Part shown: positions 2,342 to 35,896 of the stretch, piece by piece
How the letters are laid out: every line of letters starts with the position of its first letter
Numbering within the stretch: position 1 is the stretch's first letter
From: a virus
Length of the DNA stretch: 47,073 bases
IMG/VR virus record: IMGVR_UViG_3300029928_000218
Direction: 5' to 3' (one strand)
Made by a program: the position numbers and the translations under genes
The notes under the pieces: generated by a model
The model's input: the letters and a program-made list of their open reading frames with translations, nothing else
What the model was told of the DNA's origin: nothing
Database searches by the model: none

Positions 2342-3349
2342 TCACGATTCCTTCGAACCCTGTTCGGCGGACCACTTCTTCAGCTGCCTGGGGTCGTGGC
2401 GGAAAACCTTGCTAAGAAGCGTCTGGGTCACTCCCGCGTCGATCAGCGGCTGGAACCACTTGCCCATCCATTCCTCTTCGGTCATCCTGCCGTCCGACGC
2501 CTTCCCGCCATCCTCCGGAGGCGGGAGGCTCTTGTAGAATCCCCTTATCGCGCCGATCATCTCATACGATGAGCGTCCGGATATGCACGTCACGAAATCG
2601 TGGAACGGGAAGTCCCCGACGATGAAATCCGCCGAGGACAGATTGTCGTAGGCGTACTCGCCCACGGCCAGCGAATCCGGGTCCCTCGTCCATGAGGACG
2701 TCGGGACTGGAAGCAGCTCCGTAGGCTCGTTGAATCCCGCCTTCACGTACACGATGGAGCGCGGGTCCATCTCGTAGTGCCGCTTCTCGATGAACCGCTT
2801 GGCGGCGGCGTTGTTCTTCTGGAAGGTGCAGTTCACGTTCCCAGGGTCGTTCTCCGCGTCCAGGAAGTTCCTGAACGCTGGTCCGAGATTGCGCATGGCC
2901 GGGGAGAGCAGCCATAGGCACAAGTTGAACTTGCGGATGATCCCGCAGAACTTCTTCATGCTCGATGCCATGTCGCCCACGTTGTTCATATCCCCCAGCA
3001 GGAAGTTCTGGGCCTCGTCCAGAAGGAGGATGATCATCGTGTCCTTGCGCCCGTGCCTCTCCAACTCGTCCACGACTATGGGGAAAATCTCGCGCATCTC
3101 ATGGATGGTATGGACTCCCGGAGGCGACTCGGTGGCGAATCCCGACGCCGTCTTCTTCACGAATATCACGTTCGTTATGAGTACGACGTGCTTGGGCGTT
3201 CCCTCGAAGTATCCCTCGATAAGGCGCTGGCAGAAGGATACGGCGCAATGCGTCTTCCCGCCGCCCCTCATCCCGTAGGAAACCAACACGGCCCCTGGCT
3301 TGAATATGCCCTTGACGTACTCGGATATCCATCCGGAGTCGATCTTCAT
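2342..3349 (-). CDS. Zot/pI-like P-loop NTPase (pleolipovirus-type NTPase candidate) with possible C-terminal HTH
   Basis: Walker A GMRGGGKT; Walker B ILLLDEAQ; C-terminal GVTQTLLSKVFRHDPRQLKKW resembles an HTH. Confidence 0.75.
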   Translation of the reverse strand: MKIDSGWISEYVKGIFKPGAVLVSYGMRGGGKTHCAVSFCQRLIEGYFEGTPKHVVLITNVIFVKKTASGFATESPPGVHTIHEMREIFPIVVDELERHGRKDTMIILLLDEAQNFLLGDMNNVGDMASSMKKFCGIIRKFNLCLWLLSPAMRNLGPAFRNFLDAENDPGNVNCTFQKNNAAAKRFIEKRHYEMDPRSIVYVKAGFNEPTELLPVPTSSWTRDPDSLAVGEYAYDNLSSADFIVGDFPFHDFVTCISGRSSYEMIGAIRGFYKSLPPPEDGGKASDGRMTEEEWMGKWFQPLIDAGVTQTLLSKVFRHDPRQLKKWSAEQGSKES

Positions 3350-4320
3350 GGGCGCCTCCCGGAAGCATTGATATAGCCGCGCGATGATTGTCTTCCGTCG
3401 GTTGCGCCGTCGCTTGGGGCCGTTGTCACAAGCCCGCGTGCCGGCTTTCCTTTCCTTTTCTTTTCGGATTTCTTTTTATAGTTGCGTGATGATGTCTTAC
3501 TGTCGGTTGCGCCGTCGCTTGGGGCTGTTGTCACAAGCCCGCGTGCCGATTTATTCACACTCATTGCATAGAATTTCCAGAATAGTTCAGTGTTGTAATC
3601 GTTAGGATAGTTTATCGCGTTGCCCGTCACTGAAGCGGCCAAGTCGCTTATCTGGAACAGCTCCGCTAGATACGATTCCTGCATCTGCACGATGATTCTG
3701 TCCGACCATAGCACTTCCAGAAATTCATCGCTGATATCGCACGTCTTATCGAATGAGACGACGATGGTCTCGGACAAGTCTACCTCTTCAATGGCCTGAA
3801 CCAATCTCTGAATGGCTGAGAACACATAGAATGCGTTCTTAGGCCTCTTCCATCTCACCCTCATGTCCGGCTTGATCTTCATCTCCGGAAGAGACAGAAC
3901 CAGGAACGGAGAGCCGGAAACGCGATCCACTATCTCGGAGAGTCTTTCTGGATGATTCATCCTCAAATCCTTGTAATGAATCTCCTTGTGGCCGCGTTTG
4001 TCCACTGACATGGGGATATTCTCGAAAAGCCATTCGTAATCGACCTCTCCGAGCTGCGTGACGGCACTGTACGTTATCGCTTTTCCCAGCGATTGCCCCG
4101 TCCTTCCAACACTGCCCGATTCGTCTATCGACCAATAGGATACTTTCTCACGTATGATCCCTCTGATTTCGACAATATCGCGCCCGTAGGCTATGCGGAC
4201 TAGCTCTTCTCCGCATGGGAGATGGCTGGCATTGAACGATTTCACGCCCACACGGCCGTTTCCGGACGTGCGGTTCGGACGGAGCGGTATGTAAAGCTCC
4301 CACATCTCTGCATCATTCAT
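3346..4320 (-). CDS. DUF3800-family RNase H-fold protein (copy 1), reading through a 3' repeat
   Basis: YWSIDESG, central VSFDK, C-terminal FQISDLAAS; tail repeats KxARGLVTTAPSDGATD twice. Confidence 0.7.
   Translation of the reverse strand: MNDAEMWELYIPLRPNRTSGNGRVGVKSFNASHLPCGEELVRIAYGRDIVEIRGIIREKVSYWSIDESGSVGRTGQSLGKAITYSAVTQLGEVDYEWLFENIPMSVDKRGHKEIHYKDLRMNHPERLSEIVDRVSGSPFLVLSLPEMKIKPDMRVRWKRPKNAFYVFSAIQRLVQAIEEVDLSETIVVSFDKTCDISDEFLEVLWSDRIIVQMQESYLAELFQISDLAASVTGNAINYPNDYNTELFWKFYAMSVNKSARGLVTTAPSDGATDSKTSSRNYKKKSEKKRKGKPARGLVTTAPSDGATDGRQSSRGYINASGRRP
3372..3548 (-). ncRNA. Two 72-nt structured repeat units (putative DUF3800-associated RNA), each ending in a TATA-like box
   Basis: Units at 3372-3443 and 3477-3548; the 47-nt cores (3397-3443, 3502-3548) differ at one base, which keeps a GGGCU/(A|G)GCCC stem paired. 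Confidence 0.55.
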
Positions 4321-33836: not shown

Positions 33837-33949
33837 GGGTTTTCCTCCCTGTCTCCAATTCGATATCCTCCTTGACGTTCGGTCCGGCCCCGGGATCGGA
33901 GCCGGAAAAGGGTTTGATGGCGCGGATGCCCGCGCCGAAGATGCTAGAA

Positions 33950-35896
33950 TCACCACGGCCACTCGAACGTGATGTCGAGATACCTGTCCAGCGCATCCGC
34001 CACGGGTCCCGCGGCGATCATCCCTATCAGAACGATTGCGAGTCCGGCGGCCCCCACGATCGGATGCCCGCGCCCGAATCCGTAGACGATGAGGATGCCT
34101 CCGAGGGCCAGTGCGATGAGGCGGATGAGCTCCGCCATGTCGTTGGATCCCCTCGGCTCGGCGGGGGTGAAGTTCTCCATGTCCTCGGCCTTGATGTAGT
34201 CCACCTGGGACGCCACCAACTGGACCTCGGTCCTGGATTCGCCTCCGTAGCGCATCTCGGAGATGCCGATCTTGGATCCCGCTCCGAGATAGACCAGCGA
34301 ACAGTCCTCGTAGGACGCGGCATCGAATCCGGACAGCGAGGAACACTGACCGTAGACCAACGCGAAGCATTGGGATTCCGTCTCGTGGGTTCCTGTCTTC
34401 AGAGTCGTCGTCTTGTAGAAAATGGGCGTGAACGCCACGTTCTCGTAGACCTTGCATTCGGTCGTATCGCCCTTGGCATCGACTCCCTGCATCGTCAGGG
34501 TTCCGCGGCAGTACAGCGTCATGGAGTCCTGGGTGAGCTTGTAGCCTTCCTTCTTGATCTCGCCGTCGTTGTCCTCCCACCACGTGGACAGCTGGTCCAT
34601 GTAGAGGGTGACTAGCAATCTCTTCTGGTCGGCGGTCATCTCGACGTTCTCGTAGGTATCCGGAACGTTGAGAGTGGTCAGATACATGGACGCGGAGCCC
34701 GCGTCGTCGTAGATATCCCATACAGTGCGTGCGGCCGTGTTGGCCTTGGATATGACGGAATCGATCTGCTTGATGAGCTTCGCGTAATAGACCATCATCG
34801 CGGTTATGTCCGAGGACTGGCGGTCCTCCGAGTTCTGCGGGACGACGGAGAGCTTGAACAGATCGAACTTGCCCGTCGTGGTAGTCGTCTCCCCTGTCGC
34901 GTTGGCAGCGTATGCGGACTCGCCGTCGTATAGGCGGGAGCCGTCGGAGGTGACGATCATCGAGTCGCTGCCGGAGTTGATCATGATTCCGCCCTGGACG
35001 GGGGCCGCGTCGGCCTCCTTCACATACATGAAGTTCCCGAAGTACGTCACTCCGGGCGTGAGGCGGTAGACGTCGTATCCCTTCCAGGCATCCGGATTGG
35101 GAAGGTCGTTGTTCCATCCGGCTTCGAGTTCGATGACGTTCCCGTTCGCTCCCGTCATGGTGGCGGCCTCGGATGCGTACACGGGTCCTCCCACGTAGTA
35201 GACGGCGTTCCTTCCATCGCGGACGGTCCTGTCGTTGTTCTTTCCTACTACCTGGCCCATCGTGGCGGAGAATTCGTCGGAGGATTCGGCGGATATGGAG
35301 GAATCCCCGATGGAGAATTCCAGCTTCATCTTCCCGTCTCCGTAGTACTTGGAGTACTCCGAGGCGTTCCACTCGCCGATATGCTCGGCGACGGTGGAGA
35401 ACTGCTCGTTGATCTGGTTCGTGGCGTTGACTAGCATCACGGCGCTGTTGTAGTAGGCGTCGGAGTAGGTCATGGCCTCGTAGGGGCTGTACGCCTTGCC
35501 GGAGGTCCAGTAGGACGATGAGGTCAGCTCGGCCATCCTTATCCAATGCTCGGCCGTGAGGGACCATATGTTCTGGTAGTTGTTCAGTGCGTTGGCGTAG
35601 TGCGCGGTACCGTCGGCGAGGGATCTTGCCAGCAGCTTGGCCTCTTCCTTGCGCACATCGTCCTCGTCCTCGCCGCTATCGACGGCATCGCCTACCGCCC
35701 ATCCTACGGCCAATCCGGCGGCGAAGGACAGTCCGGCGATTCCGGCCAGGAGCTTCACGCTGTATACCGCCACGGGTATTATGAGGACGGGGATTCCCTC
35801 CGAGTCCTCTTCCTCGTCCTGCAGCTGGATCGCGGTGAAAGGCACCGCCAGCATAATCACGACGGCCGCGAAGGCCATCAAACGCTTATGCTTCAT
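33950..35896 (-). CDS. Pleolipovirus VP4/VP5-like spike/fusogen candidate
   Basis: Signal peptide, acidic linker, Gly/Ala-rich hydrophobic segment ending GLAVGWAV, helical region with NNYQNIW, C-terminal TM hairpin; 648 aa. Confidence 0.65.
   Translation of the reverse strand: MKHKRLMAFAAVVIMLAVPFTAIQLQDEEEDSEGIPVLIIPVAVYSVKLLAGIAGLSFAAGLAVGWAVGDAVDSGEDEDDVRKEEAKLLARSLADGTAHYANALNNYQNIWSLTAEHWIRMAELTSSSYWTSGKAYSPYEAMTYSDAYYNSAVMLVNATNQINEQFSTVAEHIGEWNASEYSKYYGDGKMKLEFSIGDSSISAESSDEFSATMGQVVGKNNDRTVRDGRNAVYYVGGPVYASEAATMTGANGNVIELEAGWNNDLPNPDAWKGYDVYRLTPGVTYFGNFMYVKEADAAPVQGGIMINSGSDSMIVTSDGSRLYDGESAYAANATGETTTTTGKFDLFKLSVVPQNSEDRQSSDITAMMVYYAKLIKQIDSVISKANTAARTVWDIYDDAGSASMYLTTLNVPDTYENVEMTADQKRLLVTLYMDQLSTWWEDNDGEIKKEGYKLTQDSMTLYCRGTLTMQGVDAKGDTTECKVYENVAFTPIFYKTTTLKTGTHETESQCFALVYGQCSSLSGFDAASYEDCSLVYLGAGSKIGISEMRYGGESRTEVQLVASQVDYIKAEDMENFTPAEPRGSNDMAELIRLIALALGGILIVYGFGRGHPIVGAAGLAIVLIGMIAAGPVADALDRYLDITFEWPW

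Follow-up and report, generated by a model that had tools for sequence, protein, structure and literature searches.

A probable pleolipovirus-like provirus of a gut Methanomassiliicoccales archaeon, with 27 kb of other genes lying between those for particle building

Surface-protein operon and fusogen

We analyzed 47,073 nucleotides of viral DNA (IMG/VR record IMGVR_UViG_3300029928_000218), called here the window. Genes lie on the minus strand unless stated otherwise and are described from right to left. The conserved right-hand module starts with a gene (45910-46491) for a transglutaminase-like cysteine protease, as judged from weak Pfam matches (Transglut_core, Peptidase_C93, CEP76-peptidase). 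Its homologues were found at the same position in relatives G002, G003, G078, G151 and G173. There follows a secreted Ig-like protein of 496 aa with a signal peptide (44415-45905; Pfam He_PIG, 1.6e-10; signal-like helix), and G001, G002, G003 and G005 carry homologues 38-68% identical to it upstream of the fusogen. The next two products are a 334-aa PKD/Flg_new protein with a signal peptide and a C-terminal TM anchor (43414-44418; TM scan, and gene call and Pfam in the identical contig L057) and a Big_2/Flg_new/He_PIG adhesin-like protein of about 590 aa (41642-43417; Pfam, gene call in L057). A DUF3800 gene (40543-41568; Pfam, 4.5e-8) lies amid the adhesin genes and is not present at the corresponding position in L026 and G002. 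Further, we detected a PKD/Flg_new adhesin-like protein with a signal peptide (39413-40552; Pfam Flg_new 2.3e-24, PKD 1.2e-9; TM scan) and another DUF3800 gene (38436-39416; Pfam, 2.5e-7), 326 aa as called in L057. The last of the four Flg_new-bearing genes upstream of the fusogen encodes an 850-aa protein (35893-38445) with five Flg_new repeats (Pfam, 4e-54), a signal peptide and a C-terminal TM anchor (TM segments at residues 10-28 and 830-848). Its stop overlaps the fusogen start, and every relative that was inspected had its homologue directly 5' of the fusogen.

The fusogen is a 648-aa VP4/VP5-like spike protein (33950-35896), identified by an AF2 model, Foldseek and family motifs. The first-pass annotation, made from the sequence alone, had described in this protein a signal peptide, a fusion-peptide-like segment with GLAVGWAV, an NNYQNIW helix and a C-terminal TM, and all four were recovered. 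The TM scan gave a signal-like helix at residues 6-24 and two C-terminal TM helices (590-608 and 612-630). GLAVGWAV lies within a second long hydrophobic stretch (residues 35-69), and NNYQNIW occupies residues 104-110. The same annotation had ascribed a G(V/I)GW motif to the N-termini of pleolipovirus spikes. This part did not hold: the motif is missing from HRPV-1 VP4. It had also proposed comparing the predicted structure with HRPV VP5. In the model (pLDDT 75) the protein is predicted to adopt the V-shaped two-domain spike fold of HRPV VP5/VP4: the first two Foldseek matches in the PDB were 6qgi and 6qgl (prob 0.99 and 0.82), and the first in BFVD was HRPV-11 VP4 (E 8e-8).

The fusogen family comprises 247 clusters at 50% identity. 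Its profile matched 58 of 261 Methanomassiliicoccales species genomes, often with several copies in each, and in 33 sequences with identity down to 32% there were 36 invariant columns. Some relatives carry fusogens that are fragmentary or contain in-frame stops. We compared the family with the published VP4-like fusogens of M. intestinalis (610 aa) and 'archaeon DOK' (641 aa), using the SEQRES records of the AlphaFold models in the supplement of PMC10919331. The motifs VW.I(Y/F)D..GEA..YLTTLM.P..Y and LY(C/V)RG are common to both. One complete 1.9-Mb genome contains four fusogen copies, the same number as the M. intestinalis models in that supplement.

Directly downstream of the fusogen lies a gene for a 100-aa protein with three TM segments (33537-33839; TM scan), a candidate VP3-like virion membrane protein. 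It had no Pfam match, and a 52% identical homologue directly follows the fusogen in G001. The small TM proteins reported earlier beside the fusogen correspond to this protein and to a 1-TM protein at 31790-32218. The signal-peptide-bearing Ig, PKD and Flg_new proteins form a conserved operon, of which the fusogen and the 3-TM protein are the last genes. Beyond it we found a DUF3800 gene (32735-33511; Pfam, 2.3e-8), followed by four 90-nt direct repeats (family D4, 32270-32918).

The assembly block and the inserted middle region

The conserved assembly block begins with a 305-aa protein (5575-6492). The TM scan placed three helices in its N-terminal part, and its C-terminal half is heptad-rich. 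Homologues 25-61% identical to it were observed upstream of the NTPase in eight relatives. The next gene, for a conserved 316-aa protein (4628-5578), had no Pfam or PHROGs match; its homologues keep their order in eight relatives. A conserved 115-aa protein follows (4317-4664; gene call in L053), with homologues (29-71% identical) adjoining the NTPase in seven of eight inspected relatives and none detected in G005. Between this gene and the NTPase a 324-aa gene is inserted (3346-4320). Its product had no Pfam match of its own and is 31% identical to a DUF3800 gene of G001, and the gene is not found at the corresponding position in G078, G151 and G173. The block ends with a P-loop NTPase of the FtsK/HerA, A32 and Zot type (2342-3349), identified by its fold and by its Walker A (GMRGGGKT) and Walker B (LLLDEAQ) motifs. 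The coiled-coil protein with N-terminal TM and the NTPase of the first-pass annotation were both confirmed at their stated positions; the likeness of the NTPase to Zot is tentative.

Among Methanomassiliicoccales species genomes we found 28 pairs of fusogen and NTPase genes on one contig, 1.9-31.4 kb apart. Nearly all were co-oriented, the exception being G132 with opposite strands, so the grouping is not due to chance. In these related loci the fusogen, the 3-TM/coiled-coil protein, two small conserved proteins and the P-loop NTPase make one co-oriented block; the order of the TM/coiled-coil, 316-aa and 170-aa genes was kept in all eight relatives inspected. The median gap between fusogen and NTPase was 3.2 kb (n = 28), compared with 30.6 kb in the window; nine of the 28 had gaps of 10-31 kb, and in a sister element, with a total span of about 77 kb, the gap reaches 54 kb. 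In compact relatives 2-6 kb separate the fusogen from the assembly/NTPase block, while in the window 27.5 kb lie between the fusogen and the TM/coiled-coil gene. The earlier claim of a core split by about 27 kb of accessory genes is borne out by these distances.

The inserted middle region (6493-32734) was annotated with Pfam, PADLOC and NCBIfam, and its genes are missing from the interval between fusogen and TM/coiled-coil gene of compact relatives. Besides the 1-TM gene it contains a YafQ-like gene (31064-31477), five paralogues (27639-30730), an N4/N6 MTase (24406-25137), an MNT gene (23863-24357), a C5 MTase (20695-22077), two PCNA-like genes (18830-20599 and 17758-18825; ESM Atlas structure rows, PCNA, TM 0.67-0.72), a type II MTase (12293-13372) and a split type IIG R-M system (7630-12296). 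Thus the cargo comprises PCNA-like genes, four DNA methylases, a type IIG R-M cassette and toxin-antitoxin genes. The GC content falls to 0.46-0.50 in the R-M cassette (9-13 kb). Three subclade-conserved genes (16884-17402, 16316-16825 and 6372-7526) have homologues at the corresponding place in G078, G151 and G173, which indicates stepwise build-up instead of one insertion. In G002 and G003 the counterparts of 14599-14850 and 24406-25137 are located upstream of the module. The palindromic 23-nt motif TTTCCnGAAATTTCTGAAACGTT, which resembles an operator, occurs in seven copies (16862-30116), all within the middle region (seven matches with at most three mismatches, 0 expected). Outside the window it was found only in the closest relative, L001. 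Pfam, PADLOC and NCBIfam scans found no second integrase, transposase or recombinase in the insert.

The left end and integration

At the left end we observed a low-GC cassette of 2.14 kb on the plus strand (164-2303), identified by Pfam and by its presence or absence among near-identical elements. It encodes a Panacea-domain antitoxin (312-812; Pfam), a 283-aa protein (833-1684) and a YafQ-like toxin (1802-2266; Pfam). The cassette is present in L055 and L064, missing in L053, L054 and L063, and forms contigs of its own, about 2.3 kb long, in 32 index blocks. Positions 1-163 (minus strand) are the start of an 8.0-kb segment, known from L064, that runs from the NTPase past the window to an integrase.

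L064 is 100% identical to window positions 1-3905 and extends the element by 8.0 kb past window base 1. In this extension a gene for a 552-aa tyrosine integrase (PF00589, 47.1 bits) lies 6.3 kb beyond the left end, with its stop 7.75 kb beyond. L064 and L057 belong to one 65,996-bp contig, in which they match the two ends of the window with 100% and 99.93% identity. Beyond the integrase lie host genes, for ribonucleotide reductase (RNR) and NAPRTase. Therefore the element is integrated and at least 54.5 kb long, counted from its boundary on the integrase side as far as the transglutaminase gene, in line with the more than 44 kb estimated before. The first-pass annotation had recognized no integrase. 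This holds within the window, because the contig ends there, but the inspection of flanks that it proposed revealed one 6-8 kb past the left end, in an assembly 99.9-100% identical to the window. We therefore regard the element as a temperate integrated provirus and not as an integrase-less episome. We looked for the right-hand element end (attR) and did not find it. L063 shares the element to 255 nt past the integrase stop and then diverges from L064, which gives two flanking contexts for one and the same element, and the element is 98-100% identical across several independent assemblies. Near-identical copies with cassette variation and two flanks point to recent mobility.

Interpretation and comparison with known systems

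These results make it probable that the 47 kb of the window belong to a temperate, integrated provirus of pleolipovirus-like type in a gut Methanomassiliicoccales archaeon, a member of the published VP4-like-fusogen group. The host family is probably Methanomethylophilaceae. Relatives sit in Methanomassiliicoccales MAGs and in one isolate, Ca. Methanoprimaticola sp. MG2, which fits the methanogen host suggested earlier. Host, split and size also favor the earlier description of a large, cargo-rich enveloped virus or vesicle-type element, which would form virions or vesicles. As the first-pass annotation had noted, capsid, terminase and T4SS families are lacking; none was detected with Pfam or PHROGs. 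A replication initiator was not recognized either.

After excision, the genome may be replicated by host enzymes assisted by its own PCNA-like clamps, and its four methylases would modify its own DNA. Fusogen, adhesin-like proteins and 3-TM protein would enter the cell membrane, where the membrane-associated NTPase block could aid loading of DNA into a budding vesicle. Particles would be released non-lytically and would infect new cells through fusion of membranes. The replication, defence and regulatory region, with its own seven-copy operator, has probably expanded in this lineage to 27.5 kb and so parted the fusogen from the assembly block. The genome size of such an element is apparently free of a capsid limit.

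We considered whether the element is instead an integrative plasmid that spreads in specialized membrane vesicles, like the 'plasmid vesicles' of pR1SE, decorated by the fusogen and membrane proteins, and that would act chiefly as a plasmid rich in cargo. Its length is near that of pR1SE (~50 kb) and greatly exceeds the 7-17 kb known from pleolipoviruses, its R-M, methylase, toxin-antitoxin and PCNA-like cargo is heavy and plasmid-like, and the failure to find capsid genes with Pfam and PHROGs agrees with this. In PMC10599561 pleolipoviruses are themselves considered to have evolved alongside plasmids. However, the fusogen, membrane protein and NTPase block is the pleolipovirus morphogenetic signature, the identical module is found in compact relatives of 31.6 kb, and the group is treated as viruses in the literature (PMC10919331). 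At the level of genes the distinction between virus and plasmid is partly semantic. We consider this explanation unlikely.

Somewhat less likely still is a defective or domesticated provirus that no longer forms particles and is retained because its adhesin-like proteins, R-M and toxin-antitoxin modules benefit the host. The five Flg_new, PKD and Ig surface proteins are of a kind linked to gut colonization (PMC10673518). The defence and addiction cargo, the interrupted morphogenetic module, the DUF3800 genes inserted in both conserved blocks and the damaged fusogens of some relatives could be read in the same way. However, every core gene is intact here, the fusogen family is clearly conserved in its invariant columns, and the near-identical copies vary in cassette content and flanks. 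A composite of a compact provirus and an unrelated inserted element, or two mis-joined contigs, is very improbable: the operator regulon of the middle region, its low-GC R-M cassette and the different position of two of its genes in G002 and G003 would agree with it, but the joins were reproduced in independent assemblies (L057 with L064, L055, L053 and the Logan contig L067), which excludes mis-assembly, L001 is collinear over 45090-26764, the Pfam, PADLOC and NCBIfam scans found no second recombinase in the insert, and part of it was apparently built up stepwise.

The pR1SE plasmid vesicles of Halorubrum lacusprofundi are cargo-rich, membrane-enclosed, capsid-less vehicles; our element is similar in size and cargo, and its vehicle may be similar. 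pR1SE is not known to have a VP4-like fusogen or the pleolipovirus core block. With Pleolipoviridae (HRPV-1, HRPV-2/-6, His2 and SNJ2, of Halobacteria) the element shares the spike fold, and it resembles them in having a small multi-TM membrane protein adjoining the spike and a co-oriented conserved downstream block with a P-loop NTPase last. Temperate members of that family have tyrosine integrases, as found here. There is no detectable sequence similarity: comparison of profiles with hhalign did not link the fusogen to HRPV-1 VP4 (E 0.32), and only the Walker region of the NTPase aligned with HRPV-1 VP8 (E 0.15). Therefore kinship with Pleolipoviridae rests on fold and gene order. The element is 3-8 times larger than their 7-17 kb genomes, and its host belongs to another phylum. 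In HRPV-1 the VP3 gene is upstream of VP4, whereas the candidate VP3-like gene follows the fusogen here. Further differences are the additional hydrophobic segment near the N-terminus of our fusogen, its two C-terminal TM helices and the five adhesin-like genes that precede it.

AvPV1 of the 'Thalassapleoviridae' (17.9 kb, a provirus of Archaeoglobus veneficus; PMC10919331) is a pleolipovirus relative from a non-halophile that was recognized by fold and profile. It is integrated at a tRNA gene, with flanking direct repeats and the integrase at one end. The relative in isolate MG2 is arranged alike (31.6 kb, a 22-bp bounding repeat overlapping tRNA-Pro, integrase adjoining). In the published VP4 tree (PMC10919331) 'Thalassapleoviridae' branch as a clade of their own, and AvPV1 differs from our element in its compact genome, the absence of an adhesin operon and its unsplit morphogenetic module.

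The closest known systems are proviruses vir422-447 of Methanomassiliicoccales (Medvedeva et al. 2023, Nat Microbiol 8:2170), analysed by Baquero et al. 2024 (PMC10919331). They share with our element the fusogen family, host order, tyrosine integrase and Flg_new adhesin-like genes, and such genes were reported for viruses of gut Methanomassiliicoccales (PMC10673518). The novelty implied earlier was thus overstated, as VP4-like-fusogen proviruses with Flg_new adhesin-like genes in this order had already been published. The present copy is set apart by its length of at least 54.5 kb and the 27.5-kb separation, although similar sizes or layouts may occur among those 26 elements. In summary, the group is known, and the present element is a new and unusually large representative (at least 54 kb), in which 27 kb of other DNA part the genes for particle building.

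Gene order and the predicted fusogen

We consider it likely that the window belongs to a temperate enveloped virus without a capsid, which falls into the published pleolipovirus-like group from Methanomassiliicoccales and has been enlarged by cargo. Its excision, particle formation and expression are predicted. The G+C content of the window is about 58%, and the minus strand carries almost every real gene; start/stop overlaps are numerous, and GC3 in the real frames is 0.75-0.85. We found no tRNA genes in the window, and a scan of it with Rfam returned no family at the gathering score.

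Read in coding direction, with coordinates falling, the series opens with the gene for a transglutaminase-like protease (45910-46491). It is followed by adhesin-like surface-protein genes (44415-38436) with He_PIG, PKD, Big_2 and Flg_new domains, signal peptides and, in two of them, C-terminal anchors; two DUF3800 genes are interleaved with these. Next come an 850-aa Flg_new protein (35893-38445), the 648-aa predicted fusogen (33950-35896) and a 100-aa three-TM protein (33537-33839). Approximately 27 kb of other genes then precede the gene at 5575-6492, whose product combines three TM helices with a coiled coil, and after which are encoded two conserved proteins of 316 and 115 aa, a DUF3800-related protein (3346-4320) and a P-loop NTPase (2342-3349). 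All features described in the first-pass annotation were found in the window.

The four DUF3800 or DUF3800-related genes (3346-4320, 32735-33511, 38436-39416 and 40543-41568) sit within otherwise conserved blocks, at sites that relatives leave unoccupied, and some are followed by conserved repeats of 76-90 nt (families D4 and D15). These genes resemble self-inserting elements. A low-GC cassette of 2.14 kb at 164-2303 encodes a Panacea-domain antitoxin, a 283-aa protein and a YafQ-like toxin. It was present in some and missing from other elements that are otherwise 98-100% identical, and in 32 index blocks it also forms contigs of its own, about 2.3 kb long. Its behaviour is that of a small toxin-antitoxin unit which is mobile or polymorphic.

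Neither the fusogen nor the TM/coiled-coil protein, the 316-aa protein or the NTPase had a match in Pfam, PHROGs or NCBIfam. The fusogen also gave no match by tblastn against 50,697 phage records, its profile none against PDB sequences, and a scan of IMG/VR found no relative. Its family is nevertheless large and strongly conserved: we found 50 clusters at 90% identity, reaching down to 31% identity, and 247 clusters, nearly all of 600-700 aa, in a library of 50%-identity representatives. We modelled the fusogen with AlphaFold2 from 33 family members (mean pLDDT 75) and compared the model with PDB and predicted viral structures by Foldseek. The first two ranks in the PDB were HRPV-2 VP5 (6qgi; E 2.4e-4, probability 0.99) and HRPV-6 VP5, spike proteins of haloarchaeal pleolipoviruses, while HRPV-11 VP4 ranked first among predicted viral structures (E 8e-8). 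Judging by this model, the 648-aa protein is a pleolipovirus-type fusogen, as had been proposed from its resemblance to pleolipovirus spikes. Alignment of the fusogen and NTPase family profiles with HRPV-1 VP4 and VP8 by hhalign did not reach significance; the sole fusogen stretch aligned was a W-D-x-Y-D-x-G motif, which we treat as a lead only. ESM Atlas features of the TM/coiled-coil protein scored below 0.8 and were uninformative. "Zot-like" seems a fair label for the NTPase, which may act in DNA movement at the membrane.

Relatives in Methanomassiliicoccales

Methanomassiliicoccales are common gut methanogens. To our knowledge no virus of this order has been isolated, and we know of its pleolipovirus-like proviruses from sequence only. 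In our survey of 261 Methanomassiliicoccales species genomes, the fusogen was present in 58 and the NTPase in 49, several genomes being multi-copy. According to Baquero et al. 2024 (PMC10919331), proviruses of Methanomassiliicoccales with VP4-like fusogens were found by Medvedeva et al. 2023; the former authors analyse more than 20 of them (vir422-447), and their supplement holds AlphaFold models of the fusogens of M. intestinalis (610 aa) and "archaeon DOK" (641 aa). The sequences of these two models share the conserved blocks of the fusogen family, including YLTTLM.P and LY(C/V)RG. Flg_new proteins are also described from gut Methanomassiliicoccales viruses (PMC10673518). This kind of element is already published, and the present one is an unusually large member. 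What may be novel is an expanded lineage of 55-77 kb with a split morphogenetic module.

Some fusogen-bearing contigs (L005, L008, L009, L013-L015 and L017) were binned into bacterial MAGs, assigned to Muribaculaceae, Lachnospiraceae, Dialister, Gudongella and Desulfovibrionaceae. An archaeal fusogen in such bins probably reflects mis-binned mobile-element contigs.

Ends and integration of the element

There is no integrase within the window, and terminal overlap was absent when we checked the window for circularity. The 65,996-bp contig k119_158033 of ERZ27300192 is 100% identical to the window over 1-3905 and 99.93% over 35910-47073. Past window base 1 it carries nine small genes and then the gene for a 552-aa tyrosine integrase (PF00589, 47 bits), followed by three ORFs and then by host genes, for ribonucleotide reductase and nicotinate phosphoribosyltransferase. 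The first-pass annotation had recognised no integrase; this is correct for the window itself but not for the element, whose integrase seemed to be missing owing to the contig end.

A sister element, NODE_135 of ERZ808243, has a fusogen 86% identical to that of the window, an identical integrase and a fusogen-to-NTPase gap of 54.4 kb. It shares sequence with k119_158033 as far as 255 nt beyond the integrase stop, where it turns into different DNA. This divergence point sets the left boundary at 8.0 kb beyond the window and means that the element occurs in two different contexts. The left boundary and the transglutaminase gene are 54.5 kb apart. We did not find the right boundary; in the 2.4 kb upstream of the transglutaminase gene, the left-boundary sequence does not recur as an attR. 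For calibration, Ca. Methanoprimaticola sp. MG2, an isolate, carries a 31.6-kb relative with an adjoining integrase; a 22-bp direct repeat marks the two ends of this relative and overlaps tRNA-Pro at the 3' end of that gene. We regard an integrative plasmid carried by vesicles as unlikely and favour the temperate enveloped virus.

Just past the element boundary, NODE_135 carries a further phage-like region with genes for a Lar anti-restriction protein, a serine recombinase (Resolvase) and an FRG-domain protein (L063:12242-18468), which suggests a second mobile element docked beside the provirus. In the 57,031-bp contig G173:C2 (L040-L042), from a related species genome, both ends lie inside co-oriented adhesin genes. 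Read circularly, this contig gives the full transglutaminase-to-integrase order plus 13 kb more. It has no terminal overlap; a circular episome is one possible reading and a tandem pair another. At the right end of the window, an adhesin-like gene (>571 aa, with a signal peptide) starts in the diverging direction: its first codons lie at 47027-47073 on the plus strand, and it continues on the matching contig (L057:1-1715). Its poly-G tract has 10 G in the window and 11 G in the 99.93% identical contig, which could be slipped-strand phase variation or homopolymer sequencing error. This gene had no homologue among eight relatives and is therefore probably host DNA or lineage-specific.

The divided core block and its insert

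In the window, 27.5 kb separate the fusogen gene from the TM/coiled-coil gene and 30.6 kb from the NTPase gene. Among 28 fusogen/NTPase pairs sharing a contig, the gaps were 1.9-31.4 kb (median 3.2 kb), and 19 were of 6 kb or less. The compact relatives (G001, G002, G003 and G005) have adhesins, fusogen, one or two small genes, TM/coiled-coil protein, 316-aa homologue, 115-aa homologue (not detected in G005) and NTPase in this order. Compared with them, the core genes of the window are indeed split, as was proposed with an estimate of about 27 kb. The nearest NTPases (61-82% identity) are those of G078, G151, G173 and G082, which share the layout of the window with 8, 10, 17 and 29 kb, respectively, at the insert spot, and which hold homologues of some inserted genes (31790-32218, 16884-17402, 16316-16825 and 6372-7526). 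Since the closest relatives have graded gaps and some insert genes in common, the insert appears to have grown stepwise at a hotspot.

The insert encodes two PCNA-like proteins in tandem, of 589 and 355 aa. The ESM Atlas model of the C-terminal half of 18830-20599 matched sliding clamps (TM 0.67-0.72), and 17758-18825 gave a weak NCBIfam clamp match. The 589-aa protein and a 172-aa protein (within 16884-20599) have alike N-terminal motifs, YEVR...G..SSK.KA, which may represent a common adaptor domain. Further, one C5 and one N4/N6 methylase, an MNT nucleotidyltransferase, a YafQ-like toxin and a five-member paralogue array are encoded, and a low-GC stretch holds a type II methylase and a split type IIG restriction-methylase pair. 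The 23-nt palindromic motif TTTCCnGAAATTTCTGAAACGTT occurs in 7 copies against 0 expected by chance, all within 16862-30116 and mostly directly upstream of gene starts; outside the window we found it only in the closest relative (L001). The insert looks like a separately regulated module for replication, defence and cargo.

The element might also be read as a domesticated adhesion and defence island, which we consider quite improbable. A composite or chimera is very improbable, and chimerism by mis-assembly is excluded, as the joins were reproduced in several independent assemblies.

For the enveloped virus we tentatively propose, as one possible history, that a gut Methanomethylophilaceae sub-lineage of pleolipovirus-like temperate viruses grew to 55-77 kb by gene accretion at a single hotspot, with the genes for fusogen and membrane protein on one side of it and the assembly/NTPase block on the other. 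The genes gained there would be those for replication, methylation, restriction and toxin-antitoxin functions and those of the paralogue array, and the insert would be run by its own operator regulon. If elements of 55-77 kb still form particles, capsid-less vesicle virions would be without a tight packaging limit, and the boundary between an enveloped virus and a vesicle-borne megaplasmid would be blurred. The size series (elements of 31.6 kb, >54 kb and about 77 kb, with fusogen-to-NTPase gaps of 2-54 kb) permits testing the DNA capacity of a capsid-less enveloped particle, and isolate MG2, with its cleanly bounded relative, offers a cultivable handle. The conserved adhesin operon joined to the fusogen gene may set host range or alter the host surface in the gut. 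Compared with characterised pleolipoviruses, the 55-77 kb sub-lineage would reach three to eight times the size of any.
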